A stretch of 64,000 bases of DNA, from assembly GCF_058153355.1 (NCBI RefSeq), contig NZ_CM177019.1; one strand, 5' to 3'. Within the stretch, counting starts at the first letter, position 1; the number at the start of each line of letters is the position of its first letter. Shown in pieces: positions 1,760 through 62,535 of the stretch. The notes below the pieces were generated by a model that saw only the letters and a program-made list of their open reading frames with translations, did no database searches and was not told the DNA's origin. Made by a program: the position numbers and the translations under genes.

Positions 1760-1918
1760 GTCGTAAAAAATGCGCAGAGTCCCTGAAGTGACCTCCGGCA
1801 GGACACTGTCTCAGGCACTCTGTGATACCCCAACTATCGTCTCCGGACTGACGGTTGAATTTTCAGCGTTGTTTTTTTAATGTAAAAAACCGGTTACGGG
1901 TAAGGCTGTGAGGAGGGA

Positions 1919-2116
1919 GTGATGGTGATACGCAAAAAGAAGTGCAGGGACTGTGGAAACGCGATTACTCATAATACATGTTGCCCGTATTGTGGTTCTG
2001 TCGACCCCTTCGGCTATTACCGGAATACAGACCGTATCGTTACCATACTGCTGGCACTGATTATTGTGGTCCTGCTGACTACTGTCAGCGTCAGTCAGTG
2101 TGTATATACTGTGTAG
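1919..2116 (+). CDS. small zinc-ribbon membrane protein (hypothetical)
   Basis: GGAGGG SD before the ATG; CxxC...CxxC followed by a hydrophobic helix. Preferred over the overlapping minus-strand ORF 1877..2197. Confidence 0.35.
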   Translation: MMVIRKKKCRDCGNAITHNTCCPYCGSVDPFGYYRNTDRIVTILLALIIVVLLTTVSVSQCVYTV

Positions 2117-3248: not shown

Positions 3249-3455
3249 ATGGCTACCCCAGTTTCGCTGATGGATGACCAGATGGTCGACATGGCGTTTA
3301 TCACTCAACTGACCGGCCTAACCGATAAGTGGTTTGACAAACTCATCAAAGATGGGGGCTTTCCTGCGCCCATCAAAATGGGGCGCAGCTCCCGCTGGCT
3401 GAAAAGTGAAGTGGAAGCCTGGCTGCAGGCGCGTATTGCACAGTCCCGTCCGTAA
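3249..3455 (+). CDS. alpA: AlpA-family phage transcriptional regulator (Xis-like DNA-binding)
   Basis: 68-aa product with GGAGGA SD 8 nt upstream; sequence (ITQLTGL...WFDKLIKDGGFPAPIKMGRSSRWL) matches the AlpA family. Upstream part of the track ORF rejected. Confidence 0.8.
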   Translation: MATPVSLMDDQMVDMAFITQLTGLTDKWFDKLIKDGGFPAPIKMGRSSRWLKSEVEAWLQARIAQSRP

Positions 3456-3542
3456 TTTTTAACCACTAACCCTTCGCCCACAGCAGACGCAATCTCCGGC
3501 CTGCCGGCGGCGCTCTGCTGCCTGTTATCCCCCGTGAGGAAT

Positions 3543-4151
3543 ATGAAAATGAAACAACAGTATCAGACCCGTTACGAGCTGCTCCATGAAAACTACCAGA
3601 AATGGCTGACCGGCTTCACCCGGCACGCCGTATCATGGGGCGTGTGTCATCCGAATATCTACTATTTCCATAATCTGACGCCCGGGTGGGTGTCATTCAA
3701 TGGCGAAAAACCGGAGATTGCCATCGTTCCCCAGAGTCTGCACCGGCTGATTTATGGTCCGGACAAACGGAGCTCCCCGTCCCTGGATGATGATCTGGTG
3801 GTGAATTTATGCACCAGCGAACACCTGCTGGTTCATCATCCGATGCTGGAAGGGATCCTGCTGTCTGAATGTGAGCGCCTGAAGCAACATTCTCTGGCAA
3901 ACAAACTGATCAGCCTCTTCCGTCAGTTTGGCGGCACGGAGTTACGTCTCAAACTGGTCTGGCTCTGCTGGCTTGACTTAATGACCGGAAACAGCCTTGA
4001 CGACTGGACGAAAAACCTGAAACACAAATCAGAAAAAGATCTGGAGCAATGGATCATTGCACGTCAGGGTCAGAGTGAACCACTGACAAATCTGATGGAT
4101 CAGTACGTGCTTATGGCATACCGTACATCGGTTGATGCCGCTCACAGTTGA
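3543..4151 (+). CDS. hypothetical protein (CP4-like element)
   Basis: Long ORF with GAGGAA SD and an ATG start; no recognisable motifs. Confidence 0.45.
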   Translation: MKMKQQYQTRYELLHENYQKWLTGFTRHAVSWGVCHPNIYYFHNLTPGWVSFNGEKPEIAIVPQSLHRLIYGPDKRSSPSLDDDLVVNLCTSEHLLVHHPMLEGILLSECERLKQHSLANKLISLFRQFGGTELRLKLVWLCWLDLMTGNSLDDWTKNLKHKSEKDLEQWIIARQGQSEPLTNLMDQYVLMAYRTSVDAAHS

Positions 4152-5012
4152 TGTCTGAGAACCACAGGCTGGCAGCAGAAAACCAGCCCTGTGGTAAAAT
4201 ACAGTAATAGCGGCGTACATCAGGCACGCCGCTCACTCGTCCACAGATCATATACGTCATTATACTGCGCGATAACGGAGGGCTTCAGCACCCGGTCATT
4301 TCTGAGCGGGTATGAATACCATTGATGATGCGAAGCAGCCACGGGCAGAAACGTTCTTCACAACCAGGTGCCTCCATCTTCACTGCAGTCTGAATGTGCC
4401 GGCTTGTTATCCACCAGAAATGGTATGCTCCGGTACATGCATACCCCGGAGACTATAAACGCACTGAATCATAGCCTCCCACCTCAGCAGGAGGCAGTCA
4501 GCTTTCAGGCGGAAAAACGTTGCAGTTAAAGATCGTGAGAATCGCTGTTTCGTTGCATAGCAACCCGAACAGTTGTAGTGAAACATTTTACCTGCATCAG
4601 CACATGGTCAGGCGCCGTCTGTATGGCGTGGAATACTGATGTTTCGGCTGATGGCAAGCCTCATTCTCTGTGGAAACAGGGGCGCGCATTAGCTTCTCAA
4701 CCAGAGAGTGTCACAAAGACAAATATTGCTGAAAATCGCATTCATCGTTCAGGCGTGAATGCCCGGAGACAAAAGCCGCTGTCCACACAGTCCCCCTCTG
4801 ACCTGAACAAAAAGCATACACACAACAGGCTCACCTGACCCCGAAAAACCATAACTTCAGCAATACCAGTGACACCAGCACGTTACCTCAGTGCCACATC
4901 TTCAGACCGCGATCAATCTGAAATGTGACTATCGGGGCAATATCCCTGCTTTGTGGTACACGATAACCAGAAAACATCCCCTGAACCGCCAGCCAGAAAG
5001 ACTGGCCACAAA

Positions 5013-6970
<1,958 letters not shown>

Positions 6971-8404
6971 AAGGGGTAAGCTGAAATCGTTTATGGATTA
7001 CATCGACATATGCCTGGCAGAGAATGTCCGGAATGACGAGGTTATCTTTGCGGAGATTAAGGCAATGGTATACGGGCCGACGTTCCATGCCGCGTTACTA
7101 CATTCAGCCCGGACGTAAAATGCGCCCGTCAAAAAGAACGGTTCGCTTCGAAACTCAGCCAGGATACCACCTCTCCGCCACACCCGAGAAGAAGTTGATA
7201 TGGTGGTTGCCGGACAACAGCGCTCCTGGATTGACTGCTGCATCACTCAACCACGCTGAATATCAAAGGAGAGCGTTACCGGTTAAAAGAGAAACGTAAA
7301 GCTGTGGTGATGACCCAAAACGCAACGCCTGTCAGTGAGGATGAAATGGTGAAAAGCGGACAGCATCAGTAACGGAAGTATCTTAGCGGGTACGAAAATG
7401 GCAGGATCGTGACATTGACAGAATATCTCCTGATCATCCTGAATGACTGCAGTTGCTGTAGAAAAGTAAGCTGTCTCCACCCACGGCACCACTTAACAGG
7501 CATTCCGTAACTTCCCCCAGACTTACTATGACGCATTATCGGTGCACTGAAAACGGGAGAGTGCGCTTAAAACCGCAGACCGCATGCGGGTGTTACTGCA
7601 TGACAGTCTGGCCGTATTGTGAGATGTCGGCAGGAACCGATGTCCGCGCAGGGGGGAACTTCCTGCAGTACCTGACGCTTCAAATGGTATTAACCGTAGG
7701 GTGTTGTTGGTTCCGGATCGCGGAAATGGGAGCACAGGTCTGCTACGGGGTGTACCTCTGACAGTATATCCGGCTCGCTCATCTGACAGCCTCTCTCCCG
7801 GAAAAGACCAAAAATGAGATCGTCTCCTCAACAGCAGAGAAGAGGTCTTGACAGACAGGCTACATTGCATACGATTTATGAAGAAAAAGACAGCAAATAT
7901 GGAGGTTATAGCGGAGAATACCCTACGAAATTCCTATGAAAAACGATTGAAAAAAATATCAAATTCGATTCGTTTTTATATGCTTTTTGGGAGCGTGGCG
8001 ATGACGAACTGTTGCATGTGCAGAGGAGAATGCACCCGGAAGCACCAGAATCATCCAGAAAGGCAGAACGATTACGCATCAAACCAGGAGACAGCAATAT
8101 CAAGGTAATATACTGATTTAAAATGAATTTACAGCAATACGTAAAAACATTTTTTACTTAAAGGAGACAGATGCGCTGAAGAGAGTGCAGGTATTTTTAT
8201 ATAAAAATGAGAAGTTTACGGGATGTATATCCGGCACACTATGACCGGAGAATATCAGTCAAGCTTAAAAAGACAATAAATACAGTGAGTTAAATACACA
8301 GAGAAAACGTAGTATCAGAGGGTACATCTGTAAGCGTCTTATCAGGACCGTCTGGCAAATTCCCGATGCTTTGGACAAAGTATCCACCACTAAATTAATA
8401 GTGG

Positions 8405-8833
8405 GTGATAAAAATGTCAGATATACAAAAAAATGCCTCTCCGGGAAGGCCTAAAGGGTGCCTGAATTATCCTCCTGAATTCAAACAACGACTCATAGAA
8501 GCATCATTCCAGCCAGGTGTTTCAATTTCCAGACTGGCCCTGGACAATGGTATTAATGCCAATCTGTTGTTCAAATGGCGTCAGAAATGGCGGCAGGGGA
8601 AGATAAAATTGCCATCATCAGAATCAGGCAGAGAATCTCAGTTAATTCCTGTCACTATTGATGCCCAACTCCCAACTGCTCCGGCTAATGAGCCACTGAC
8701 CGCAAGACCGTCAGTAACACCGGAAATACACAGCATCTCCTGTGAGATTACGTTCAGAAACGGCACCCTTCGGTTGAACGGGGCAGTGAATGAAAATCTG
8801 CTGTCCTTGCTTATACAGGAGCTGAGACGGTGA
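8405..8833 (+). CDS. IS66-family accessory protein TnpA (orfA)
   Basis: First ORF of the IS66 trio; start may be the ATG at 8414 rather than the GTG at 8405. Confidence 0.8.
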   Translation: MIKMSDIQKNASPGRPKGCLNYPPEFKQRLIEASFQPGVSISRLALDNGINANLLFKWRQKWRQGKIKLPSSESGRESQLIPVTIDAQLPTAPANEPLTARPSVTPEIHSISCEITFRNGTLRLNGAVNENLLSLLIQELRR

Positions 8834-9177
8834 TATCTCTCCCTGCAGGTTCGCGTATCTGGCTGGTTGCAGGTATCACCGATATGCGAAATGGCTTTAA
8901 CGGCCTGGCCTCAAAAGTTCAGAACGTCCTGAAGGATGACCCGTTCTCCGGGCATCTGTTCATCTTCCGCGGACGCCGGGGTGACCAGATAAAAGTGTTG
9001 TGGGCTGACAGTGACGGACTGTGCCTCTTCACCAGACGCCTGGAGCGGGGCCGCTTCGTCTGGCCGGTCACCCGTGACGGCAAGGTGCACCTTACTCCGG
9101 CCCAGTTATCCATGCTTCTTGAGGGCATCGACTGGAAACACCCGAAACGAACGGAACGCGCTGGCATCCGCATATAA
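8830..9177 (+). CDS. IS66-family accessory protein TnpB (orfB)
   Basis: 115-aa product; GTG start overlaps the orfA stop (GTGA). Confidence 0.85.
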   Translation: MISLPAGSRIWLVAGITDMRNGFNGLASKVQNVLKDDPFSGHLFIFRGRRGDQIKVLWADSDGLCLFTRRLERGRFVWPVTRDGKVHLTPAQLSMLLEGIDWKHPKRTERAGIRI

Positions 9178-9196
9178 CCCGTTGTAAAGTGAGGAT

Positions 9197-10768
9197 ATGG
9201 ACACCTCACTTGCTCATGAGAATGCCCGCCTGCGGGCACTGTTGCAGACGCAACAGGACACCATCCGCCAGATGGCGAAATACAACCGCCTGCTCTCACA
9301 GCGGGTGGCGGCTTATGCTTCCGAAATCAACCGGCTGAAGGCGCTGGTTGCAAAACTGCAGCGCATGCAGTTCGGTAAAAGCTCAGAAAAACTTCGTGCA
9401 AAAACCGAACGGCAGATACAGGAAGCACAGGAGCGAATCAGCGCTCTTCAGGAAGAAATGGCGGAAACGCTGGGTGAGCAATATGACCCGGTACTGCCAT
9501 CTCCCCTGCGCCAGTCTTCAGCCCGTAAACCGTTACCTGCCTCACTTCCCCGTGAAACCCGGGTCATCCGTCCGGAAGAGGAATGCTGCCCGGCCTGTGG
9601 TGGCGAACTCAGTTCTCTGGGATGTGATGTGTCAGAGCAACTGGAGCTTATCAGCAGCGCCTTTAAGGTTATCGAAACACAACGTCCGAAACTGGCCTGT
9701 TGCCGGTGCGACCATATCGTGCAGGCTCCGGTGCCTTCAAAACCCATTGCACGCAGTTATGCCGGAGCGGGGCTTCTGGCCCATGTTGTCGCTGGAAAAT
9801 ATGCAGACCATCTGCCGTTATACCGCCAGTCAGAAATATACCGTCGTCAGGGCGTGGAGCTGAGCCGTGCCACACTGGGGCGCTGGACAGGTGCTGTTGC
9901 TGAACTGCTGGAACCGCTGTATGACATCCTGCGCCAGTATGTGCTGATGCCCGGTAAAGTCCATGCCGATGATATCCCCGTTCCGGTCCAGGAGCCGGGC
10001 AGCGGTAAAACAAGGACTGCCCGGCTGTGGGTCTACGTTCGTGATGACCGTAACGCCGGTTCGGAAATGCCTCCGGCGGTCTGGTTCGCGTACAGCCCGG
10101 ACCGGAAAGGTATCCATCCACAGAATCATCTGGCCGGTTACAGCGGAGTGCTTCAGGCCGATGCTTACGGTGGTTACCGGGCGTTGTACGAATCCGGCAG
10201 AATAACGGAAGCCGCATGTATGGCTCATGCCCGGAGAAAAATCCACGATGTGCATGCAAGAGTGCCCACCGACATCACCACGGAAGCCCTGCAGCGTATC
10301 GGTGAACTGTATGCCATCGAGGCAGAGGTCCGGGGCTGTTCAGCAGAACAGCGTCTGGCGGCAAGAAAAGCCAGAGCCGCGCCACTGATGCAGTCACTGT
10401 ATGACTGGATACAGCAACAGATGAAAACACTGTCGCGTCACTCGGACACGGCAAAAGCGTTCGCATACCTGCTGAAACAGTGGGATGCACTGAACGTGTA
10501 CTGCAGTAATGGCTGGGTGGAAATCGACAACAACATCGCAGAGAACGCCTTACGGGGAGTGGCCGTAGGCCGGAAAAACTGGCTCTTCGCGGGTTCTGAC
10601 AGCGGTGGTGAACATGCTGCGGTGTTGTACTCGCTGATCGGCACATGCCGTCTGAACAATGTGGAGCCAGAAAAGTGGCTGCGTTACGTCATTGAACATA
10701 TCCAGGACTGGCCGGCAAACCGGGTACGCGATCTGTTGCCCTGGAAAGTTGATCTGAGCTCTCAGTAA
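9197..10768 (+). CDS. IS66-family transposase TnpC
   Basis: 523-aa product with N-terminal coiled coil, a CxxC zinc-finger region and a DDE core; a second copy of its 3' two-thirds recurs at 53803..54843. Confidence 0.9.
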
Positions 10769-10967
10769 ATATCAATACGGTTCTGGCGAGCCGCTTACGT
10801 ACATCTTACAACAGAGACTGAATTTCCGGTTTTTCATAACCGGCGCATTCCGGAAAGTGCAGGCGGCCCGGAGGTTTTCTGACGCCACTACCTGGTAGAT
10901 TGTTCTGTACATCATGTACGGAGGTTTTTGTTTGCTTTTTTAAAATCTGCAAATGTGAGAAAAGCAG

Positions 10968-48367: not shown

Positions 48368-50122
48368 CTACGGTGCTGGTATTATAGTCTCTGCTCCAAA
48401 CCAATTTCCAAGTGTTGTCAGTGCCGCAGGTGACAAAGCTTGGGTGAAAAGGATCGCAAGGCGCTTTTGGGGTCTGGAACAAGCGACGTAAAACAAATTT
48501 CGGTTTCGTTCAAATGAGTCTTGCTTATCGACTGGAATCGTTTGGGCTCCAGCGAATTCCAACATTTCTCCGAAGTTATACTGGTTCCACCCACGCCCAA
48601 CAACAACCAGGACATTCTCAAATTCAGCACCTTTCACACCATGTTTAGTTTCGAATGGAGAATATCCATCAAGATAACGGCGAAGTGATCTGACCTCCGA
48701 ATAGGGAATATTTTTCAGCTTTTCAAGTTCTTTTAATCTTCGGGGCATTTCAACATCAGCCGTTCTGTCAAAATGGAGTAACTCCTGCTCAAATTATTCA
48801 ACCTTATCTGGAAGTCTTGGCTTCCGTTGAGCACGGATGAACTCAATTACGTCGCCAATTGTACCAGTTTCGCGGAGAGCAAGAAGTTGCGTCATTACAT
48901 TGTGCCAACTCACCTTATCTGAATGTCTACGCAACAGTGGTGTAATACCGCCAAGCGCATTAAACATCTCTCCATACTTACGAGCGGTAAAGGCATCACA
49001 GGCGGGTTCCAGTTTGTCTACAAAAAAGGCTATATGTTCATGTTCCTTTTTCGTGAAGGATTCATTGTATTTAAACGCTGCCACTATATTTGAATAGCCC
49101 TGCTGATTGGCTAAAAGTCGATGGGTCAACATGAGAATTTTGGTGTGATTGGGAGAAAAGTCCCAACCATCCTGCTCCAACGTTGTTTTAACTCGTTCCA
49201 GAGTAGCCTGGCCTTCACATAATGGTAAATCACCACTCCAGTGCACGCCTTTTTGACGAACTCCTTGCCAATTGTTTGTATGGAAAACGCGTACTAAACC
49301 TGTAGCTTCGGGATCTTTAACACACTGCGGTAGCTCAGGTCTCATACGATTAAGGGCATCAACAATTATCTTGTCCGAACGAAAATTGGCTTCTTTACCT
49401 ATTTCAACCACGTCCTGATGTTCCAGCTTTCCACATCCACCACCATAGATTTTTTGCCAATGGTCGCCGAAAAAACCAAATAAAGGTGCTCTAGCTTGTC
49501 CAAGAAAATGCCGTTTAATTGCCTCAATCCAGTTTTTATCAGTGTCCTGGTACTCATCGACCAGAATGATTGGAAAGCGTTCTGCAATCACTCTACGGAA
49601 TTTTTCGTGCTCCATGAGTGAGACAGTTAAAGAAAGAACATCGTCATGATGAAGAGTTATACGATGGTCGCGAATAGAGCGATGTCCAAGATTATACTCA
49701 ACACTACGATTCCCAAGGCTTCCACCAACTTCTTCGAGCTTTTCTGTCCATGTTGGCATTGTCTCAATCAGTTCTCTCAACGGTTTTTGAAAGCTGCTTA
49801 TTAACGACCAACAGAACGCATGATTGGTATCACAAAAAACGATGGGGCTTCGATCTGTTCGCGCGACGATTTCATCCTTCGCCACGTTAGTAAAGGTGAT
49901 GCAGGCAATTTGCTGGCTACGTTTTTCAAATAAATCCTTATTTCGCTCAATCAAGAATCGAAGTGCCTTAATAAGGGAATACGTTTTACCCGCACCAGCG
50001 CCAGCTTCCAGCCGGAAGCTTCGTCCTTCACTGAGGCAAGCATACATAGATTCCAAAGCTCGCTGGCTAGCAGCTTCGGCGGGCGAATGGATCTCAGACA
50101 TCAGCGCTGGCTCCTTCTTCAA
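48368..50122 (-). pseudogene. UvrD/PcrA-like SF1 helicase (GajB-like), interrupted by one in-frame TAA
   Basis: Motif I AGAGAGKT and motif II ILVDEYQDTD in the 442-aa ORF; after the TAA at 48794..48796 the same frame continues into the C-terminal helicase domain (YVACSRPQKRLAIL). Confidence 0.7.
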
Positions 50123-52166
50123 TACTAGTTGTGGCTTCTACAACTTGCGCCAATACTGGATCTTGTGTCATAAGCTCATTGCTGCCAGCTAACCAGCGGA
50201 TTCCATCGACTATGTATTTGGGGGCGTTCCATTCTGTCTCTGTAATCGCGTATTTCAATGCAAATTCTGATTTTTTCCACTCAGACGCTTTATCACGGGC
50301 TTCTATTTCCAGTTCCTGAGAATTTCTCCCTACCAGCCCGAATAAAGCCGAATTTGCAAGGATAAATGCATCTTCGAATGTGCGTCCGCAGGGGCCATCT
50401 GTCACTTCTGCACATTGATAGGCAATACGATTTCCATTACGAGCTTTATCATCGTCACTCCTGGCAATCAAACCAGCTAATGTGAAAGGGGTATCTTCAG
50501 AGAACCATGCTTTCAAACAAGCATTACTGGAATATGTACCAAGATGAACAGCACATGCCTGACCTCCTGCTCTTTGGACTGCGTCCAGATCTGTTATGAT
50601 CAGACTCTGAAGCTCAAGAAACGCTAATAACTCGAAGAACAAATGAGCGTAAGCACCGCCGACTTCCATCACCGTTGCGTACTGGCTCGACAGCTTCGGT
50701 CTCTCTGGTTCGGCTGATTCTAGTTTTTTGATGATGACGGGAAGCAATAATCGCTCGCTTAACCCCTCGACGAGAATCGCTTTATCTGCGAAAAACAGAT
50801 CACAACGTGTCAACGTCATGTATTGATGAAGGAATTTTTTATCTTCAATTAGAATATGATTCAGCCCTTTACGCAGATCTTTAATTTTGGTTTTTCGGAC
50901 ACCTTCCTGAGTCCCCTGTGCTGGAGCCCCCAGAAAATAGCGAATACTCTCGAAACCAGCCGCATTGGCAATGTGAGACGAGTGTGTAGACACGACAAAT
51001 TGTACAGGCCAGGGTCTCCTGTCCTCAGTGCCATCCACCAGTTGTTGTGCAATTTTGGCAAGTTGACGAATAAAAACCTCCTGCATTTGTGGATGCAGAT
51101 GGGCTTCTGGTTCTTCAATGAATATCAGGTGTACACCCGGCTCAGTAACTTCAGCACAAAATGCTTTATAGAAACCAGCTAATTGCAAGAGAATAAATAT
51201 CAGATTACGTGTACCAAGACCGTTATATGACTCCGGTAATGCGATTCCGCTATAACCTGAATAGCGAACTTTCGTGAAGTTTGATAGCAACTTGCTAACA
51301 TCGAGCAATGTTTCAGTATGTAACTCCTGTCCTCCCAATCCTGGGTATCCAAAAGTTTCTAGAGCCGGAATCAGACTGTTGAGCTGGTTTCCGAAGTTTG
51401 TGTCAATTTGAGTCTGAATGTCCTGAACTGCACCTTTCAATGCATCAGCAATTTGTTTATCAGCAGCTCCCGCAGATGCCGAAGAGGCTGTTGCGAAAAG
51501 ATTTTCAACCGTTTTAGCCAGTACATCGGATTCTCGGGACGTCACATCATCAAGTCCTCGCTGAGCGTTGATAAAGCCCGATTTGACCAGACCGCGCAAT
51601 GCACTAGGTGGTAACTCGCGACGATTATCAGGATCGTTGGGATCTTCAGCCCATATTTTCACACAGAAATTATTAGGGATACGTTCTCGCAATATACGGA
51701 GGAAAGCGAGGCGGTCTTCTCTAGAAAGTGGCATTTCAGTCTGACTTTCGAGAAATTGTGTCAGATGGCCATCTTTCAATTCGTATCGGACTACTACCTG
51801 CGCTTCAGAACACGCGGGATCCAAATCGATAACAAAGGGACTCAATGGACCTAATTGAGGTTGTGCAGGGTCGTACTGGAATTTCAGTCGAAGTTCAATG
51901 GCGGGAATAAGTTCTCGAACGAGATGATCTTCCATGCCTTCCTTAAGTGCTTCCAGAACATCACAAAAACGGTCGTAGCAGGAACTGGAAAAGTCTTCAA
52001 GTTGGAAAGTAGCACTACCATCTGCTAAGAATCTGCGTATTATTTCTGAGAGTGATGTTTTTCCGCTGTTGTTTCGTCCAACAATGACGGTCGTCTGTTC
52101 CTCCAATACAAGCTCTGCATCAGCTAAAAGACGGAAGTTTTTAATTTCGACCTGATGAATGTGCAT
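50094..52166 (-). CDS. OLD-family ATP-dependent endonuclease (ABC-type ATPase + Toprim; GajA-like)
   Basis: Walker A GRNNSGKT, Walker B/D-loop LIFIEEPEAHLHP, Toprim motifs ILVEGLSE and ITDLD; its end overlaps the helicase start by 29 bp. Confidence 0.8.
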   Translation of the reverse strand: MHIHQVEIKNFRLLADAELVLEEQTTVIVGRNNSGKTSLSEIIRRFLADGSATFQLEDFSSSCYDRFCDVLEALKEGMEDHLVRELIPAIELRLKFQYDPAQPQLGPLSPFVIDLDPACSEAQVVVRYELKDGHLTQFLESQTEMPLSREDRLAFLRILRERIPNNFCVKIWAEDPNDPDNRRELPPSALRGLVKSGFINAQRGLDDVTSRESDVLAKTVENLFATASSASAGAADKQIADALKGAVQDIQTQIDTNFGNQLNSLIPALETFGYPGLGGQELHTETLLDVSKLLSNFTKVRYSGYSGIALPESYNGLGTRNLIFILLQLAGFYKAFCAEVTEPGVHLIFIEEPEAHLHPQMQEVFIRQLAKIAQQLVDGTEDRRPWPVQFVVSTHSSHIANAAGFESIRYFLGAPAQGTQEGVRKTKIKDLRKGLNHILIEDKKFLHQYMTLTRCDLFFADKAILVEGLSERLLLPVIIKKLESAEPERPKLSSQYATVMEVGGAYAHLFFELLAFLELQSLIITDLDAVQRAGGQACAVHLGTYSSNACLKAWFSEDTPFTLAGLIARSDDDKARNGNRIAYQCAEVTDGPCGRTFEDAFILANSALFGLVGRNSQELEIEARDKASEWKKSEFALKYAITETEWNAPKYIVDGIRWLAGSNELMTQDPVLAQVVEATTSIEEGASADV

Positions 52167-52303
52167 ATGTCCCTCATGATCTATTTATAGTCTATCGATA
52201 AATCTGATGTTATTGCTCTACCTGTAATTTTCATTCTTACGATTGTTTTGCAATGCAAAATATACCTCAGGCCATATTTATTCCTGAGGTATGTTTTGGT
52301 ATC

Positions 52304-53802
52304 TCACTCGGTCAAAGAGGCCTCACGAACATCATCCGGTTGAGGTTGGCACTCTTTCCATCGTCGAATAAGCGTTGCTACACAGGGATTACCCGCCAGT
52401 TGATTCATTCTGACCCAGTCAACATCCACTAATCCAGCCAGAAGTTCAGGATTTAGTTCCCCTTGTAATGGGTGCCACTGGCGAATACTGGGCTGGCGCT
52501 GAATTTGAGGTTGAAGGGGAGCCAAACTCCCGACGATAACGTAATTTTGTTCTGGATCATGCCAGAGTCGTGTAATGCCAGGTATGTTTTTCAACCAGTT
52601 TCGAGGATCACCTAAAGGTAAATCAAAAACACGAGAGAGTAATTTATTCCATGACGCTATTAATGACGAACTGGCTTTCTTTGCCAATTTTTTCTCACCT
52701 GCCAGGAGTGCATTTTTTCTTTCTGGCCATTTGGAAAAAATATAACTTTTTAAAATATCGTAGGTAACATTAAGTTCATTATTGTAATAATACTCACGCA
52801 AAGCACAATTCCACAACTCGCACAGCAAGTCTAGTTCACGCATGAGTGTATTTTTATTGGTATCTGATAATTCACCTTCCTCATTAAGTTGCGCTATATA
52901 AAAAGACAGTATCTTTGTATCTGGTAAGAGCCAGTGGTTTAGTGAGAACTGCTGACTTTGAGTATCAAGAACAGTCATTAATGCATCTAAATTCTCAGGG
53001 ATCATATTAGGGGTGTCGTATTTCGGATCCTGAAGAAGAATGGATATTTCTTCCATTCTATGAATAATTATTGTCAATCTCTGAGCAAATCTGGTTAATT
53101 TATCTTCACTGCTGCCAAAACCTTGCGCTATTGATTCAGGCCGATAAGTATAAGGCCATTTTTTATTTAAGAGAGTAAGAAGAGCCTCGACAGAGGTATC
53201 AAACAGTTTCAGCCTTTCATCGCAGGCTTTAACTAAATCCGGGCAAGAAGGATTAAAAGGTAAAATTACTGGGCGGTCTTGTTCAGCGGTGAATAAATAT
53301 CCTTCGGTGATAACCAATAGGTCATGAGTCAGTAAGTCTTTCTGTTCTGTCAGGCTTGTACTGATTCTTGTTTCTTTGCAAAGTAAAAGATGCTTCAACG
53401 CAAGTTCTTTGTACGCAACTTCGGTATTACGCGCCAATGCATCAAGACAGGTCTTTTTCTCAAGATCTTGAATGGCATAGTCGTAATAGCAAGAATCTAT
53501 CGCAGGGATGAGTCGGGTAGTCCCATCGGGAGTATCCTGCTCAATCAATAAATTATCAACAACAGAATCACCACTAAGATCAAACGGATTAACGTTGATA
53601 TGCTGGCACGCAATTTTAGTTCTTAGATTCTGAGTTAACGGATAGCGGTCATCAATTATACCACGGATCTGATCTAACAAAACAAGTATGCATATAGAGC
53701 TGTCTTTTTCCAATTTTTCAAATGATGAGGGTTCTGAATCCGGTAATAATTCCAGCTGTACATCAGGATACTTTTTGTTCAACACCTTTTGTATCTGCGC
53801 AC
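52304..53802 (-). pseudogene. large hypothetical protein gene, 5'-truncated at the junction with the IS66 remnant
   Basis: About 500 codons of unique sequence; the N-terminal 66 codons of the track ORF are antisense IS66 sequence, and no native start codon is retained. Confidence 0.5.
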
Positions 53803-54843
53803 TTCCCCGTGAAACCCGGGTCATCCAACCGGAAGAAGAATGCTGCCCGGCCTGTGGTGGCGGGCTCAGTCCTCTGGGATGTGATGTGTCAGAACAACTG
53901 GAGCTTATCAGCAGCGCCTTTAAGGTTATCGAAACACAACGTCCGAAACTGGCCTGTTGCCGGTGCGACCATATCGTGCAGGCTCCGGTGCCTTCAAAAC
54001 CCATTGCACGCAGTTATGCCGGAGCGGGGCTTCTGGCCCATGTTGTCGCTGGAAAATATGCAGACCATCTGCCGTTATACCGCCAGTCAGAAATATACCG
54101 TCGTCAGGGCGTGGAGCTGAGCCGTGCCACACTGGGGCGCTGGACAGGTGCTGTTGCTGAACTGCTGGAACCGCTGTATGACATCCTGCGCCAGTATGTG
54201 CTGATGCCCGGTAAAGTCCATGCCGATGATATCCCCGTTCCGGTCCAGGAGCCGGGCAGCGGTAAAACAAGGACTGCCCGGCTGTGGGTCTACGTTCGTG
54301 ATGACCGTAACGCCGGTTCGGAAATGCCTCCGGCGGTCTGGTTCGCGTACAGCCCGGACCGGAAAGGTATCCATCCACAGAATCATCTGGCCGGTTACAG
54401 CGGAGTGCTTCAGGCCGATGCTTACGGTGGTTACCGGGCGTTGTACGAATCCGGCAGAATAACGGAAGCCGCATGTATGGCTCATGCCCGGAGAAAAATC
54501 CACGATGTGCATGCAAGAGTGCCCACCGACATCACCACGGAAGCCCTGCAGCGTATCGGTGAACTGTATGCCATCGAGGCAGAGGTCCGGGGCTGTTCAG
54601 CAGAACAGCGTCTGGCGGCAAGAAAAGCCAGAGCCGCGCCACTGATGCAGTCACTGTATGACTGGATACAGCAACAGATGAAAACACTGTCGCGTCACTC
54701 GGACACGGCAAAAGCGTTCGCATACCTGCTGAAACAGTGGGATGCACTGAACGTGTACTGCAGTAATGGCTGGGTGGAAATCGACAACAACATCGCAGAG
54801 AACGCCTTACGGGGAGTGGCCGTAGGCCGGAAAAACTGGCTCT

Positions 54844-56667
54844 GTGTGTCACGAAGGAGTACTTATGGCAACAATGTGAAAATTGCAGCATAAGTTATCC
54901 ATGCTCTGAGGTGGGTGGAGGTGGGCCCTCCGGTCAGGGTTTACAGGAGCACTGACCAAACGACCCGGTGCTGCTTCATTCTAAGGAATGAGGTGGTGAG
55001 CGACTCGGGAAAAGGCAGAGATCTACTGTCACGTGGGGTTCGGGAAGCTGAACGAAAGTAAACTGTCCGATGAAGCATCGAAATCTTAGATGATGTCAAA
55101 ATGGGGCCGTACAGCCGTCCCCTGATAAGCGCAGAAGACACCTGCTTACTGACTGCGCGGCATCCGGTGTGAAGGCAGCAGGATCCCGGGCCAGACCATC
55201 TCAGGGAACGTGAGAACCTGTTTCCGGCACGTATCGGGAAACAGGGGCGGACCCATTCGTAGTAGTGATGAAAGATCTGTAATGGGTCTGGAGCGAAGGG
55301 ATGGGGATCACATTCATTGCAGAAGACACAACCCAAAAGGGGATGACGTAACTGATGCAACGAAAATCATTTGAAATACCAAAAGCACTGGTCTGGGCAT
55401 CATATCTGGATGTGCGTCGCAACAAGGGAGCCCCCGGATGCGACGGGCAGACTTTGAAAATGTTCGACCAGCAACGTGATGGCAATCTATACAAGATCTG
55501 GAACCGGCTATGTTCGGGAACATGGTTTCCGCCACCAGTGCTGGAAAAACGGATCCCGAAGTCGAATGGCAAGGAACGCATTCTGGGGATCCCAACAGTA
55601 TCCGATCGAATTGCTCAGGGAGCGATAAAACTTTTCATGGAAGAAAAGCTTGACCCGATTTTCCATGCTGATTCATATGGTTACCGACCAGGCAAATCAG
55701 CTCATGACGCTCTGAAACAATGTGCCATCCGGTGCTGGCGTTATAGCTGGATACTGGAAGTGGACATCAGTGCGTTTTTCGACCATGTGAGACATGATCT
55801 GGTGCTCAAAGCTCTGGAACACCACGGGATGCCTAAATGGGTCATCCTGTACTGTCGACGCTGGATGGAAGCGCCAATGCAGAGTTGTGAAAATGGAGAA
55901 TTAATAACCCGAACACGAGGCACTCCGCAGGGCGGGGTCATTAGTCCACTACTTGCTAACTTGTTCCTTCACTATGCATTTGATTTGTGGATGGAAAGAG
56001 AATATCGGGGGGTACCGTTTGAGAGGTACGCTGACGATATTGTAGTACATTGTTCACGAATGAGTGATGCAACAAGGCTGAAGAACAGGTTATCGGAGCG
56101 CTTCTCGGAAGTCGGGCTGGTCCTGAATGCAGGGAAAACGAATATCGCCTACATTGACACGTTTAAAAGGAGAAACGTCGCAACGAGTTTCACCTTTCTC
56201 GGATATGACTTCAAAGTGCGTACGCTGAAGAATTTCAAAGGCGAACTGTACCGAAAATGCATGCCGGGTGCGTCAAATGCAGCAATGCGCAAAATAACAG
56301 AAACAATCAAGAAGTGGCGTATACATCGCTCAACAGCTGAGAGTTTGCTGGATTTTGCGAGGCGCTACAATGCGATAGTGAGAGGCTGGATCGAGTACTA
56401 CGGAAAGTTCTGGTCCAGAAATTTCAACTATCGACTGTGGAGTGCAATGCAGTCACGTCTGCTCAAGTGGATGCAGTCTAAATACAGACTTTCGAACCGG
56501 AAGGCTCAGCGAAAGCTGACGCTGGTAAGGAAGGAGTATCCGAAGCTATTTGTTCACTGGTATTTACTACGTGCATCAAATGAGTGATCAAGAGCCGTAT
56601 GACGCGAGAGTGTCACGTACGGTTCCGTGAGCAGCCGGGGAGTGAAATTCTCTCCGGCTGACTCGAC
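54844..56667 (+). mobile_element. bacterial group II intron (1824 bp) in sense orientation within IS66 tnpC
   Basis: Starts GTGTG immediately after the exon 1 homology and ends ...AC before exon 2; domain V-like GAGCCGTATG...CACGTACGGTTC at 56592..56625; contains the RT/maturase ORF. Confidence 0.75.
55355..56587 (+). CDS. group II intron reverse transcriptase/maturase (no endonuclease domain evident)
   Basis: RT motifs including GTPQGGVISPLLANLFL and YADDIVVH, plus a maturase X domain (RGWIEYYG); 410 aa. Confidence 0.85.
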   Translation: MQRKSFEIPKALVWASYLDVRRNKGAPGCDGQTLKMFDQQRDGNLYKIWNRLCSGTWFPPPVLEKRIPKSNGKERILGIPTVSDRIAQGAIKLFMEEKLDPIFHADSYGYRPGKSAHDALKQCAIRCWRYSWILEVDISAFFDHVRHDLVLKALEHHGMPKWVILYCRRWMEAPMQSCENGELITRTRGTPQGGVISPLLANLFLHYAFDLWMEREYRGVPFERYADDIVVHCSRMSDATRLKNRLSERFSEVGLVLNAGKTNIAYIDTFKRRNVATSFTFLGYDFKVRTLKNFKGELYRKCMPGASNAAMRKITETIKKWRIHRSTAESLLDFARRYNAIVRGWIEYYGKFWSRNFNYRLWSAMQSRLLKWMQSKYRLSNRKAQRKLTLVRKEYPKLFVHWYLLRASNE

Positions 56668-56852
56668 TCGCAGGTTCCGACAGCGGTGGCGAACATGCGG
56701 CGGTGTTGTACTCGCTGATCGGCACATGCCGTCTGAACAATGTGGGGCCAGAAAAATGGCTGCGTTACGTCATTGAGCATATCCAGGACTGGCCGGCAAA
56801 CCGGGTACGCGATCTGTTGCCCTGGAAAGTTGATCTGAGCTCTCAGTAAATA

Positions 56853-58796
56853 TCAATACGGTTCTGGCGAGCCGCTTACGTTTAATCGGGAAATCTCATA
56901 TTTTCGGTTCATCATTAATGGCAGAAGGAAGCGTTGATGCTGTTGACGAGAAATTTCACCAGCACGGAGCAGTTTTTCTAGGTTGCGTAACTGGAAACCC
57001 GCATGCGCCATATCATCATTGTTCTCTGTATTGGCCTGAAAAGCGGAAAAGTAATAATGCCGTGATTCCAGCAAATATAAACAGGTCAGATCCATATTTT
57101 TGCCAGATTCAGGCAGGCTGAAATCCAGATTCACACCATTCGTCGCAGAGGCGGTCTGAGTCAGCACAATGACAATACGCCGGGAGGCAAATGCGGCCTG
57201 ATAAGCATCACTAAAGCCCTTTTTCTTCTGACATTCTGCGGTTAACAGACAAATCAGCGCAGGCTCATTATGTATGCTCACTGGGATAAACACATCAGCA
57301 AAATTTTTTAGTAGAGGATCATCAGATAAAGGTTGTTCCATTTTTAACCATGCGAGGTATTCTCTACTTTGTGTTGCTATTGTAGTGGTAAGCCATTTTC
57401 TTAAATAGGCTATGGAATTCACGAAAGCAAGATGCCCCCGGTGTTGAGGTCTTTTTCCCGCAAGATCCAATACATTAAGCAATTTTAGCAGTATATTTTT
57501 TCGATATTCTGATTCGAAATCTGATGAGGGGTCATCGCCATTCTGGAAAAAATCGGGGGCTAGCGAAGCGAGCAGATCAACACAATGCGGGTTATTCTTT
57601 ATGCTATTGAAATCTTGAATCTCAGCATTCAGTTGTGTGTTTCTGATATTTTCTTTGCTGTTATTGATCTCTTCAATAGCTAAATACTGCAACTGGAAAT
57701 CATCAGCCGTCTGGACATAAGGTATCGGTTCTTTAAACCACTCGACAGGTCGTTTTTCAAAAGTTGTTCCCAGAAAACTTTGTGTAACAGCAGGGTTGCG
57801 TGCTTCTGCAATATAACGAAGAGCTGAATTAATCCACCGGACATCGAAGTGATTACAGGCTCTTTCAATATATGACGTAGCCGACAGTGCAAAGACAAGA
57901 TTACGACTGGCGAGAGAAAGCAGCAGACCTTCTGCCGTCGTGGGCAGAAAGGCACGTTTGATCTGTATCCGTAACGGATCGATATCCGTATCTGAGACAT
58001 TCTGTTTCAGCAACCAATTGGTCAAGCCAAAAATACTGGCATGAGTATTTGGCAAAATATTACTTTTCCTTAATTCCCGTAGTTCCGGCAGGTCAGTACG
58101 CGGTAACAAAAATCGGGACATATTGGGCAGGGTTGAGCCGTAGTATGAAGGCCTGTAATCATTAACGGGGTCGAACAGAAGTCGGGTTAACTTTTTAATG
58201 TATTCATACGCTTCATCTTCACTTGCAGTCAGGTCGGTCAACATTAGGCTAAACTGTCGAATGAATTTTTCCATCAAGCGTAAAAAATCACTGATGTCGA
58301 TAGTCTGATCGCTATCCTGAAGCGGAGAGTCTGGCCTGATAATTTCGTATCCATGTTCCGCTTTCCGCATAATAAGCCGTTCACTGGTCACCAGTTGATC
58401 GGAACGGAATAAATAATGCTCACCAAAGGGTTTATTATCCAGATATTGCTGAAGAGGAATAACCAGCGATCTGGCATGTGTTAAATCAGCATGTTTTTCT
58501 GTTAATGCACTATCCAGATCATTAATAAATTTTTCTAGACGTTCACGGATCATAGGTGCAGGTTCCATTTCAACATACTGCATACGTTGTAGTAATCTGC
58601 GTCCCCCGTCGAGCAACTGACCCAGACACTCAGGTGGTTCCTGAACCCATTGCGCCTGTGCCAGATACTCTTGTAATACCTCAGACTGGTAATCAAATTC
58701 ATCGATGAAAATGATGTAATTACGCAGCTCTTTGCTGGACATTTTTACTTTGCGACGCCCATCGTAAAACGATGAAACCATCTTTTGAGTCGTCAT
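56853..58796 (-). CDS. large hypothetical protein; C-terminal 8 codons and stop supplied by the IS66 terminus
   Basis: 647-aa ORF; N-terminal IIFIDEFD resembles a Walker B / DExx motif; the last codons (SGSPEPY) are encoded within the IS66 right inverted repeat. Confidence 0.5.
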   Translation of the reverse strand: MTTQKMVSSFYDGRRKVKMSSKELRNYIIFIDEFDYQSEVLQEYLAQAQWVQEPPECLGQLLDGGRRLLQRMQYVEMEPAPMIRERLEKFINDLDSALTEKHADLTHARSLVIPLQQYLDNKPFGEHYLFRSDQLVTSERLIMRKAEHGYEIIRPDSPLQDSDQTIDISDFLRLMEKFIRQFSLMLTDLTASEDEAYEYIKKLTRLLFDPVNDYRPSYYGSTLPNMSRFLLPRTDLPELRELRKSNILPNTHASIFGLTNWLLKQNVSDTDIDPLRIQIKRAFLPTTAEGLLLSLASRNLVFALSATSYIERACNHFDVRWINSALRYIAEARNPAVTQSFLGTTFEKRPVEWFKEPIPYVQTADDFQLQYLAIEEINNSKENIRNTQLNAEIQDFNSIKNNPHCVDLLASLAPDFFQNGDDPSSDFESEYRKNILLKLLNVLDLAGKRPQHRGHLAFVNSIAYLRKWLTTTIATQSREYLAWLKMEQPLSDDPLLKNFADVFIPVSIHNEPALICLLTAECQKKKGFSDAYQAAFASRRIVIVLTQTASATNGVNLDFSLPESGKNMDLTCLYLLESRHYYFSAFQANTENNDDMAHAGFQLRNLEKLLRAGEISRQQHQRFLLPLMMNRKYEISRLNVSGSPEPY

Positions 58797-58798
58797 GA

Positions 58799-59572
58799 TC
58801 AGCAGGTGTTGCTTTTCGTCACGCCAGGCAATGGCGGGCAGAATGCGCCTGACCCAGACGTGGCGACGGAAATCTGCAACTCGTTGCCTGGCTTGGCTGC
58901 CTGCGTGAGTTCATGTTCTTCGCCATATTTTTCTTTTTGTTTCTTGGCTTCTTTTTCCAGCAATTTGATATTCTGAATCAGAGTTATCTCCACCGCTGCG
59001 CATGATTTGATTAATGACTCTTTCTCACTGGCGATGGCCGTCTGAAAACGCGTCGGATATCCTTTCAGCGATTTGTTAATATGCAGTATGTTTTTGCAAT
59101 TTCTACGCAATTTGTCGGCGATATCCTGAATGGCAAACAAATTTCTGTCTTCCAGGATATTGATGGAGTCAAATGGATCGGGAAGTGAGTCTGCGGAAAT
59201 ATTATTCTCATGAGGCAAGGGGGTGGCCTCGATGGCAGAAACGATCTGTTCATCTTGTGCATAGAGCACGCTGACGGTGAATGGTTCCCCGTTACTGTCT
59301 TTATGCGCTGCCGTTTTCTCATAAATGTCGTGCAAAATATTCCAGCGATGGGTAACCAGAATGGCTTGAGAGCCTGATTTTTTTATCGTCTCCAGCGCCG
59401 GGAGAGCGTTATCGGCATAGCCAGAGCGGTAGAGTGAGCTGGTTTTTCCGCTACCCGTAGGCCCCTGAAGCTGACAAAATCCTGCGATACGACGGGATGT
59501 TTTGGATTTTTTTGCCTGAGAAAGGGTGTATTCAATAACGGCATTGTAGGAACGTATTAAAGGGGCACTCAC
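58799..59572 (-). CDS. P-loop NTPase (helicase motif I-like GPTGSGKT)
   Basis: 257-aa ORF with Walker A GPTGSGKT; stop lies 2 nt before the ATG of the downstream 647-aa ORF. Confidence 0.5.
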   Translation of the reverse strand: MSAPLIRSYNAVIEYTLSQAKKSKTSRRIAGFCQLQGPTGSGKTSSLYRSGYADNALPALETIKKSGSQAILVTHRWNILHDIYEKTAAHKDSNGEPFTVSVLYAQDEQIVSAIEATPLPHENNISADSLPDPFDSINILEDRNLFAIQDIADKLRRNCKNILHINKSLKGYPTRFQTAIASEKESLIKSCAAVEITLIQNIKLLEKEAKKQKEKYGEEHELTQAAKPGNELQISVATSGSGAFCPPLPGVTKSNTC

Positions 59573-60075
59573 ATTTCACCTCATCCGTGTCAGGTTATCG
59601 AAGAGTAGAATTTCAGCAAATTCATGTTACACCGAACGGGTATCATTTCAATGTTTAATAATAATTTCCCCTTATAAAACAACGCTTATAATACATTCGC
59701 AGGTCAGATGATTTATCGGTGTGTTATTTGTTTGAATTTGGTGTTGTGGTTTTCTTTTTTTAACAATCTTCGATCTTCCTTCCACGACTTCCCCTTGCCG
59801 TTTTCAACCGAAAGCGGTATCTTTCACTTGCACCTGCAAAATCAGGTGCCGGGATTGGAACCCCGAAATGTAACCATACTGGCGACACGTGACGCGTCTG
59901 CGTCTTTTTTTATGTCGCGCGCTTAGCTACACCAAAATTATGGTGGGCTGGGCGGGGGCACCGTAAGGTGCGCCGGTTCCAGTATGGCCGGTAGTTCCAA
60001 CCTCGTTCAGTCCACCACCCATGAGATTGGAACCTCTGGTGGTGGTTTTCAAACCACATACTGGAGGCTGCCTTT

Positions 60076-60543
60076 ATGGCTACGATCCCCACTCAGACAC
60101 ACCCGTTACTTGCTGTTCCCTTCAATGCTGCCACAGATTTTACCGTACTGGCAGACCACTGTGAAAACTTCGCCGAAACCCTGATCGAAAGCGACGACCC
60201 GGTGCTGCGGCTGGCGCTTTGCGGGCGGCTTGCCGCCTGTCTGACTCTGCTGCAACCCACGCTGAACGAACCCATCCCGTCCCATCTGACTGACAGCCTG
60301 ACCGTTGATGCTCTACCTGCCGATATGCCCCGATTTGTCCCCGACGCTGAATTACTTTGTGACTACTCACTGACGCTGGCGCAACTTCTTATCGGGCAGG
60401 GGATGCTGCCAAAAATGGAGCAGACGATAACTGGCTTATTATGTGAACTGGTCTGGTATTTTGCCGCTGAAATGAAAGCCCCGCGTTGGCTGCGTACTGC
60501 CGGTGGCGTGAAGTTTATCGATGGTGTGGAGGCCAAAGCATGA
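60076..60543 (+). CDS. hypothetical protein (155 aa)
   Basis: GGAGG SD; stop overlaps the ATG of the Ner-like gene (ATGATG/TGA). Confidence 0.55.
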   Translation: MATIPTQTHPLLAVPFNAATDFTVLADHCENFAETLIESDDPVLRLALCGRLAACLTLLQPTLNEPIPSHLTDSLTVDALPADMPRFVPDAELLCDYSLTLAQLLIGQGMLPKMEQTITGLLCELVWYFAAEMKAPRWLRTAGGVKFIDGVEAKA

Positions 60544-62244: not shown

Positions 62245-62535
62245 CTCACGGCTGGAGTCTGACACCGCCTTTTCAGGCCATTTACCTATAAGGAGAACAT
62301 GAATCGATACCGAGGCGGATCCGGACGATCCGGGGGATAACCCGCGCAAGCGGGCGGCTGCTCAGAGAGCACAACCGAAGCCCCACCACACCTCAACGGC
62401 TGCCGCCCCGGCGCTCAGGTATCGTTCGCAGCCCCGACAAAAAAACAGGGGCTATCGGCCTGTGCGCCGGGGAAAGCTGTATCAGTGTTGGTTTTTTGGG
62501 GGATGAGTTTGCGGCAATCATGAAAAGGGGAATGT

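Follow-up and report, generated by a model that had tools for sequence, protein, structure and literature searches.

Organisation of the locus

The window, a stretch of 64,000 nucleotides from contig NZ_CM177019.1 (RefSeq assembly GCF_058153355.1), contains two IS66-family elements (Table 1). The first is intact. It matches the family models NF047595 and NF033517 (479 bits), has terminal inverted repeats starting with GTAAGCG and generated an 8-bp target duplication. The second, at 53803..56879, is a remnant in which only the right inverted repeat and tnpC from codon ~116 onwards survive; it has lost tnpA, tnpB and ~115 codons at the start of tnpC. The initial annotation had recognised the truncation and the retained repeat, with the right end placed at 56878. 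The element actually ends with ...CGCTTAC at 56879, beyond the tnpC stop codon (56847-56849), and host sequence starts at 56880.

The tnpC of the remnant is interrupted by a group II intron, the only copy in the window. The 5′ exon ends with ...AACTGGCTCT at 54843, and the 3′ exon restarts with TCGCAGG at 56668. This places the insertion in tnpC directly after the ...NWL codons and ahead of those for FAGS.... The ends of the insert fit the group II consensus GUGYG/AY, with GUGUG at 54844-54848 and ...GAC at 56665-56667. If the 1824 nt are removed, 53803..54843 becomes continuous with 56668..56879. The ligated exons form a gapless alignment with the intact copy (positions 1217-2469) at 98.9% identity (14 mismatches), and the restored frame runs to ...DLSSQ and the stop, the same end as in the intact 523-aa TnpC. 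An insert of 1824 bp at 54843/54844, starting with GTGTG, lying in sense orientation in tnpC and followed by the resumed frame, had been proposed from the letters alone; the comparison with the intact copy bore out the exact coordinates and the orientation. The seven mismatches of the 5′ exon (1041 nt) all lie within 53827-53894. The intact copy has an empty candidate site for the intron at 10586/10587, 45 kb from the occupied one.

Table 1. Features of the interrupted IS66-family remnant, its surroundings and the intact copy in the window.
Feature	Position	Strand	Basis and remarks
Intact IS66-family copy (tnpA, tnpB, tnpC)	8330..10798	+	Flanked by 8-bp target duplication GTACATCT
C-terminal ~500 codons of 818-aa host gene	52304..53802	−	5′ end deleted; comparison with E. 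coli LF82 locus
5′ exon, IS66-family tnpC remnant	53803..54843	+	IS positions 1217-2257, gapless alignment
Group II intron E.c.I3 (bacterial class D, group IIB)	54844..56667	+	1824 nt, GUGUG to ...CGAC; Rfam matches
Part of ribozyme domain I	54917..55033	+	RF01999 group-II-D1D4-2, 91.9 bits, full model length
Candidate EBS1 GGGGCC	55103..55108	+	Could pair with IBS1 GGCUCU (54838-54843)
Intron-encoded protein, 410 aa	55355..56587	+	RT domain (YADD motif) and maturase (X), in domain IV
Domain V	56592..56625	+	34 nt; RF00029 alignment and predicted fold
Domain VI	56628..56665	+	Predicted fold
3′ exon, tnpC end and right inverted repeat	56668..56879	+	IS positions 2258-2469, gapless, 7 mismatches
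N-terminal ~896 codons of 1300-aa host gene	56880..59572	−	Cut by the IS; comparison with E. coli LF82 locus

Ribozyme structure

The hairpin first described as domain V-like is a canonical domain V. The Rfam model for domains V and VI, RF00029, matches at 56590-56667 with 57.1 bits (gathering score 40). The AGC triad is located at 56593-56595, the 2-nt bulge at 56616-56617, and the tetraloop is GAGA, of the GNRA type. Domains V and VI together have a z-score of −6.2 in the predicted fold. A56661 is a single bulge in the domain VI helix, seven nucleotides before the 3′ splice site, and is the presumed branch point in the predicted structure. The sequences flanking the open reading frame can pair as a domain IV stem, with a predicted duplex energy of −17.4 kcal/mol.

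In domain I, the curated model RF01999 covers only 117 nt, at a score well above its gathering score of 36; domains II, III and most of domain I stem from MFE prediction without a curated model. Folding had been proposed as a check, and the MFE fold of the ORF-deleted intron recovered the Rfam-supported hairpins of domain I together with domains IV to VI. It was left out as evidence because its long-range topology of domains I to III is unreliable.

From the complementarity to the end of the 5′ exon, we infer GGGGCC as a candidate EBS1. The duplex with IBS1 would include two G-U pairs. The corresponding sequence is GGAGCC in E. coli 536 and GGGGUU in a copy on an ETEC plasmid (L001), and the pairing at −3, −5 and −6 is kept in all three copies. 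Exon position −2 is a G in L001 and in a second inspected locus, L002, and would mismatch the candidate. An EBS2/IBS2 pairing was not found: domain I has no GUUUUU-type complement to the conserved AAAAAC at −13 to −8. A 7-nt complement, TTTCCGG at intron position 378, was judged coincidental, because it forms part of a strong hairpin stem and lies 3′ of the EBS1 candidate.

Intron-encoded protein

The open reading frame in the intron had been read as an RT/maturase that appears to lack an endonuclease domain, and both parts of this reading held. Pfam finds RVT_1 (E 1e-40) and GIIM (E 5e-14) in the 410-aa protein and no other domain. An HNH endonuclease domain is absent by Pfam, and the protein ends 25 aa past GIIM. 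The NCBIfam model of group II RT/maturases, TIGR04416, scores 393.9 bits with a cut-off of 300. The protein differs in three amino acids from the copy in E. coli 536.

Identity and occurrence of the intron

The intron shares 99.0% identity with positions 4007952-4009775 of the E. coli 536 genome (NC_008253), with 19 mismatches in 1824 nt and no indels. This copy is catalogued as E.c.I3-2b (PMC3522654, Table S3). The catalogue assigns an intron name above 90% nucleotide identity to a listed copy (PMC3522654, Table S2), and the intron in the window is therefore an E.c.I3. E.c.I3 belongs to class D according to PMC3522654 (Table S2), an assignment taken from that table, and to group IIB according to PMC8283771 (Table 1). 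It is reported to target IS679, an IS66-family element, specifically; copies -1 and -2a are known from strain ED1a and -2b from 536, and fragments from Shigella pINV and an E24377A plasmid (PMC3522654). An E.c.I3 within tnpC of an IS679/IS66-family element is thus an arrangement that is already known and catalogued. Literature retrieved under spelling variants of EcI3 comprised unrelated papers only.

The window intron and E.c.I3-2b have the same length, tnpC insertion point, orientation and endonuclease-less RT-X protein. In contrast to the catalogued copies, the intron described here resides at another chromosomal locus, in an island adjoining yeeJ and inside the 1300-aa gene. Its carrier is an ISCro1-like variant, the 5′ exon of which shares ~95% identity with that of the 536 carrier.

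Among 5,426 complete E. coli genomes, 55 matched at least 80% of a query consisting of the intron and 200 bp of each exon. About 27 of the matches listed cover both exons fully, and there the intron is at the same tnpC site; most of the matches listed have IS66 or transposase-domain fragments annotated on both sides. All four inspected loci (L001, L002, L003 and L006) carry the intron at the same tnpC position. In one inspected tnpC, this site is kept in flanking sequence of ~950 bp with only ~70% identity, as counted from the difference list.

The lifestyle is shared with E.c.I4, a group II intron that is also nested in IS transposase genes and spreads with mobile elements (PMC3522654). E.c.I4 differs in belonging to class A, in its targets, the IS3-family elements IS629 and IS911 of E. 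coli and Shigella, and in its much higher copy numbers (PMC3522654).

Disrupted host genes and deletion

The remnant separates the residues of two host genes. The 647-aa and 52304 open reading frames of the initial annotation belong to a 1300-aa and an 818-aa gene, respectively, as revealed by the LF82 locus. Relative to LF82, a 5-bp insertion at 58889-58893 also shifts the frame of the 1300-aa gene. Missing from the window are positions 5306..7478 (2,173 bp) of the LF82 locus (L005), which hold the last ~404 codons of the 1300-aa gene and the first ~318 of the 818-aa gene. The IS has lost bases 1-1216, which contain the left inverted repeat, tnpA, tnpB and tnpC codons 1 to ~115. The junction lies in a 10-of-11-bp microhomology (CTGCgTCACT/CTGCcTCACT), and host and IS have CACT in common, so that the left breakpoint could be placed anywhere within 53800-53803. 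Open reading frames of 401 aa and 566 aa at the left junction are chimeras; the latter starts inside antisense IS sequence.

A single IS66 event had been thought to replace both gene ends. Both ends are indeed lost, but at least two events are required. Insertion of the IS was the first, because its intact right end abuts host sequence at 56879/56880. The second was a separate deletion that took IS bases 1-1216 together with the 2,173 bp of host DNA. Coverage of window positions 50000-60500 (10.5 kb) does not exceed 71% in any of the 5,426 complete E. coli genomes, and this particular insertion and deletion are therefore not represented among them. An E. coli host is supported by the region of yeeO-cbl-nac and tRNA-Asn, which shares 99.6% identity with this species.

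The disrupted host genes had no PADLOC, NCBIfam or significant Pfam matches. They form an uncharacterised two-gene module that was destroyed by the IS insertion and the deletion and adjoins a Gabija system.

Origin of the nested element

RmInt1 of Sinorhizobium meliloti, cited in PMC3522654 (ref. 34), is the prototype of class D and homes into ISRm2011-2. It shares with E.c.I3 the group IIB ribozyme, an endonuclease-less protein, homing into an IS transposase gene and the presumed mechanism of reverse splicing and priming at replication forks. Host, target IS family and sequence differ.

The locus is explained best, and with high confidence, as a structurally complete E.c.I3 at its catalogued homing site in an IS66-family tnpC that was truncated by a deletion after the IS had inserted. 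By analogy with what is established for RmInt1 and other class D introns, the intron probably arrived by retrohoming. The intron RNA-protein particle would recognise the site by EBS/IBS pairing and reverse-splice into one DNA strand. As the protein has no endonuclease, a nascent strand at the replication fork would serve as primer for the cDNA. The carrier IS had inserted into the 1300-aa gene, in the island adjoining yeeJ on an E. coli chromosome, and a separate microhomology-associated deletion then removed IS bases 1-1216 and the adjacent host gene ends. The intron is now stranded in a dead IS fragment that has no recognisable promoter upstream.

Homing need not have happened in this genome. 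Mismatches between the remnant and the intact IS are distributed very unevenly: seven fall within the first 92 bp and seven within the 212-bp 3′ exon, and the 949 bp between them have none. The IS66::E.c.I3 composite could have been acquired ready-made, on an intron-carrying IS or an island, and truncated afterwards, with the identity in the 5′ exon resulting from gene conversion between the IS copies. We give this scenario a little less than an even chance. The 3′ exon, with 3.3% divergence from the resident intact copy (7 mismatches), resembles the ETEC plasmid copy (5 mismatches) more closely, and a mosaic with seven differences in the 5′ 92 bp and none in the middle 949 bp is typical of recombination. 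Movement of E.c.I3 copies with islands and plasmids is documented (PMC3522654). However, the 949 mismatch-free bp extend right up to the intron boundary, which is explained equally well if the intron homed into a sister copy of the resident IS, and the donor copy is not identifiable under either reading. The uneven mismatches could even record that E.c.I3 homed, in this genome, into a sister copy of the resident ISCro1-like element and that the 3′ exon was co-converted from the donor. We regard this as improbable; if true, nature would have provided evidence that an endonuclease-less class D intron can home by a route that depends on recombination.

Expression and activity

A promoter scan upstream of the remnant on the + strand found no convincing sigma-70 promoter, with nothing above chance. 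The nearest + strand candidates, at 52764 and 53041, have 9 of 12 matches each, and such sites are fewer than in shuffled sequence. The suggestion that the intron could splice out of tnpC mRNA agrees with its sense orientation and the restored frame, but splicing would have no functional consequence here. It would not affect transposition, because the first ~115 tnpC codons, tnpA and tnpB and their promoter are missing. Any splicing would rely on cryptic or read-through transcripts and would still leave the element without a transposase.

The copy may still be an active retroelement that is transcribed cryptically or by read-through, splices and forms RNPs which invade other IS66 copies in the cell. 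This seems rather unlikely. The intact 410-aa reading frame with its YADD motif and so few changes to 536, an indel-free ribozyme and the canonical domains V and VI speak for activity, as does an apparently suitable empty site in the same window. Against it stand the lack of a promoter-like site in the remnant or just upstream and the intact IS copy, in which 10586/10587 is still unoccupied, with a single intron copy in the window. The uninvaded site fits inactivity or a lack of expression.

A retron, a defence-associated RT (DRT/Abi) or another non-intron RT element without splicing boundaries as the insert in tnpC has a negligible probability and was rejected: the matches to Drt3a (77 bits, cut-off 200), retron St85 RT (68, cut-off 235) and Drt2 (54, cut-off 390) stay below the cut-offs, such weak matches being expected of any RT, whereas TIGR04416 is above its cut-off, GIIM is present, the Rfam matches of domain I and domains V/VI exceed the gathering thresholds, the GUGUG...AC boundaries are exact, excision restores the host frame and the insert is 99% identical to a catalogued intron.

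Significance

The initial observation is real and was correctly interpreted in its main claims; the feature is ordinary and already known. It matters little beyond correct annotation. The appropriate label for the locus is an E.c.I3 group II intron in a 5′-truncated IS66-family (ISCro1-like) element, in place of separate pseudogenes for 'hypothetical', 'transposase domain' and 'reverse transcriptase' proteins. The two-gene module beside the Gabija system may prove more interesting than the intron. For E.c.I3, the locus adds one further data point to the known picture of an intron with a low copy number that is carried on islands and plasmids and resides in decaying IS copies.

Intron boundaries and identity

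The initial annotation placed an 1824-bp insert between window positions 54843 and 54844, within a truncated IS66-family tnpC, with its end at 56667, and the sequence agrees. The 5′ flank finishes with ...GGAAAAACTGGCTCT at 54843, and the insert starts with GTGTGTCACG. It finishes with ...CTGACTCGAC at 56667 and is followed by TCGCAGGTTCCGAC. In silico joining of the exons (53803-54843 and 56668-56879) yields the junction ...CTGGCTCT/TCGCAGG.... The joined exons align with positions 1217-2469 of the intact IS66-family copy of the window (8330..10798) in a single gapless alignment with 98.9% identity and 14 mismatches. Their single frame ends with ...WKVDLSSQ and a stop codon and corresponds to the last 408 residues of TnpC (523 aa) as encoded by the intact copy. 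The inverted repeats of the intact copy start with GTAAGCG, and its target duplication is the 8-bp GTACATCT. By this inverted-repeat criterion, the right end of the remnant is 56879, one base beyond the annotated 56878. The remnant has no left repeat and neither tnpA nor tnpB, and its tnpC is about 115 codons short.

With 200 bp of exon on either side, the intron corresponds to 4007752..4009975 of E. coli 536 (NC_008253.1), which places the intron of strain 536 at 4007952..4009775. This is the copy E.c.I3-2b (Leclercq and Cordaux 2012, Table S3; PMC3522654). The copies of E.c.I3 in ED1a also have a length of 1824 bp (Table S3). The same study assigned E.c.I3 to class D (Table S2), identified the IS66-family element IS679 as its specific target and described fragments on the Shigella virulence plasmid (PMC3522654). 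E.c.I3 has been placed among the group IIB introns (PMC8283771). The window intron and the 536 copy differ at 19 of 1824 positions without indels, and the encoded proteins differ in three residues.

Ribozyme and encoded protein

An Rfam scan of the whole window at gathering thresholds gave two group II intron matches, both within the insert and on its strand (see table). The region 56588-56667 folds with −45.3 kcal/mol (z = −6.2 against shuffled sequences). Domain IV is predicted to be closable by pairing between the sequences flanking the ORF. For the encoded protein, the NCBIfam model TIGR04416 (group II intron reverse transcriptase/maturase) gave 393.9 bits, above its cut-off of 300. Models for retrons and DRT fell far short of their cut-offs, and a reading of the insert as such an element was rejected. 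The Rfam matches, the fold of domains V and VI, the RVT_1 and GIIM domains and the TIGR04416 score thus support the annotation as a group II intron; neither a lack of intron domains nor a retron-like element was found. Class D introns, with RmInt1 as the prototype, have no endonuclease domain. This agrees with the domain scan of the window protein, in which no Pfam domain was detected after GIIM.

Features of the group II intron in the window
Feature	Position	Strand	Evidence
RF01999 (group-II-D1D4-2)	54917-55033	+	Rfam, 91.9 bits
RF00029 (domains V and VI)	56590-56667	+	Rfam, 57.1 bits
Domain V, 34 nt; AGC triad, 2-nt bulge 56616-56617, GAGA loop	56592-56625	+	Predicted fold
Domain VI helix; sole bulged A at 56661, seven nt 5′ of the 3′ splice site		+	Predicted fold
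Intron ORF, 410 aa; YADD motif	55355..56587	+	Pfam RVT_1 (E 1e-40), GIIM (E 5e-14)

Formation of the IS66 remnant

The DNA around the remnant belongs to an E. coli chromosome; the yeeO-cbl-nac region, which includes three tRNA-Asn genes, has 99.6% identity to E. coli. The island of the window also occurs in LF82 and other strains, where intact genes for a 1300-aa and an 818-aa protein adjoin a Gabija pair. Window positions 50000-53803 align with 1501-5305 of the LF82 locus, and 56879-59864 with 7479-10459. Therefore, 2,173 bp of host DNA (5306-7478 of the LF82 locus) are missing from the window. On the right, the IS terminus is complete and directly adjoins host GTTTAATC; this is a normal insertion, near codon 896 of the 1300-aa gene. 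On the left, the joint reads ...ATCTGCG-CACTTCCCC and was formed from host ...ATCTGCGTCACTATC and IS ...CCTGCCTCACTTCCCC. Its breakpoint falls within a 10-of-11-bp microhomology, with the loss of one T, which points to an illegitimate deletion and not to a single transposase-mediated event. The deletion would have taken IS bases 1-1216 and shortened both host genes, the 1300-aa one by ~404 codons at its 3′ end and the 818-aa one by ~318 codons at its 5′ end. The initial annotation had attributed the damage to both genes to one IS66 event; the loss of the gene ends holds, but it is explained by an insertion plus a separate microhomology deletion. The 647-aa gene of the initial annotation is one gene with the upstream 257-aa ORF, split by a 5-bp insertion (58889-58893). 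The presumed gene at 52304 (566 aa) is a chimera reading across the junction, and so is a 401-aa ORF at 53688.

In LF82, the intact 818-aa and 1300-aa genes are located at 3805-6261 and 6265-10167 of the locus (WP_000982354.1, WP_001275764.1). Their remains in the window are at 52304-53802 and 56880-59572, respectively. The pair directly adjoins Gabija, and the island also has ash, C4 and isrK features. PADLOC and NCBIfam gave no match for the pair, nor did Pfam for the 818-aa protein; the 1300-aa protein had only a non-significant P-loop/helicase hint (Pfam AAA_11, E 0.03). This uncharacterised pair is possibly an undescribed defence module, destroyed in the window. The Gabija system is located at 48794-52166 on the − strand. 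The 690-aa gajA is intact (PADLOC GajA, 962 bits), and gajB ends at codon 442 of 577. The gajB alignment to LF82 is gapless; hence, a nonsense substitution causes the early stop. This stop and the 5-bp frameshift show that the island is decaying in the window strain. Three RNAs above the Rfam gathering thresholds were isrK (71 bits), C4 antisense RNA (83 bits) and EFASI RNA (119 bits), at 59830-60022 and 62299-62428. isrK and C4 are just past the disrupted genes and EFASI is ~2.7 kb further; the three RNAs fit a P4-like satellite or an integrative element that adjoins yeeJ.

Divergence between the two IS copies

The remnant's mismatches to the intact IS are very unevenly distributed. Seven are in the first 92 bp, all within 53827-53894; the remaining 949 bp before the intron have none, and the 212-bp 3′ exon has seven again. 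This 3′ exon is closer to a copy on an ETEC plasmid than to the resident IS. The pattern suggests a mosaic, either with a gene-conversion tract ending at the intron or of recombinant origin. The simplest explanation is that the two IS copies underwent gene conversion; co-conversion of exons in the course of homing is less likely.

No megablast match listed for the 5,426 complete E. coli genomes covered the left-hand ~500 bp of the intact IS (8330-8840; IRL, tnpA). The best hits for this part, with 97.7% identity, were Escherichia albertii plasmids, and the remainder of the element is ~97% ISCro1-like. The intact IS therefore appears to be a hybrid. About 1.5 kb to its left, ORFs of 260 and 340 aa are present on the − strand (5079-6880). 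IS21-family istB/istA genes of 783 and 1023 bp are annotated beside E.c.I3 in strain 536; by size only, our guess is that the two ORFs are an istB/istA-like pair.

Occurrence in E. coli

Some part of the intron was present in 168 of 5,426 complete E. coli genomes. At least 80% of a query of the intron and 200 bp of each exon was found in 55, mostly on plasmids. Among the matches listed, both exons were fully covered in about 27, and IS66 or 'transposase domain' fragments were annotated on both sides in most. The tnpC position was identical in all four loci inspected (ETEC plasmid, wastewater chromosome, pINV plasmid and strain 536). Given this recurrence, the nesting described initially is the normal, documented habitat of E.c.I3. 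Intron-free IS66 exon sequence is far commoner, with ~13,000 places in 4,258 records.

The wastewater chromosome (NZ_CM129853.1, 3049-5826) has an E.c.I3 of 98.5% identity, inserted at the same codon as in the window in a tnpC of the IS66 family. Around the insertion, ~950 bp of this tnpC share only ~70% identity with the window (hand count from the difference list); exon and intron together reach 88.3%. Between −13 and −1, −2 is the sole exon position that is not conserved. E.c.I3 thus uses several diverged IS66 lineages via a conserved motif.

Target recognition and present state

By analogy to class D introns, the intron RNP would recognise the tnpC site through base pairing and then reverse-splice into DNA; the nascent strand at the replication fork would prime cDNA synthesis. 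Pairing is possible between a candidate EBS1, GGGGCC (55103-55108), and GGCUCU, the six bases with which the 5′ exon ends. The equivalents of this candidate are GGAGCC in the 536 copy and GGGGUU in a decayed plasmid copy, with pairing kept at three positions in all three copies. The pairing scheme is provisional, since two other carriers have a G at −2, a predicted mismatch to the candidate EBS1, and a search for EBS2 in domain I of the window intron found none.

An empty E.c.I3 site, in the same orientation as the occupied one, is present at 10586/10587 in the intact IS, 45 kb from the intron. The two sites share 40 identical bases of the 5′ exon; in the 3′ exon they differ only at +5 (G in place of A), +11 (T in the empty site) and +23. 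The window intron copy appears intact. A + strand promoter scan detected fewer sites than in shuffled sequence, with no promoter-like site inside the remnant or a short way upstream of it.

Overall, the initial observation is confirmed and the evidence supports its interpretation, apart from small changes to one coordinate and to how many events took place. Both the intron and its target are catalogued, so the window holds one more copy of an already known arrangement. In the window, the intron is most likely a silent passenger; even transcription and splicing would give no more than a 5′-truncated tnpC message.
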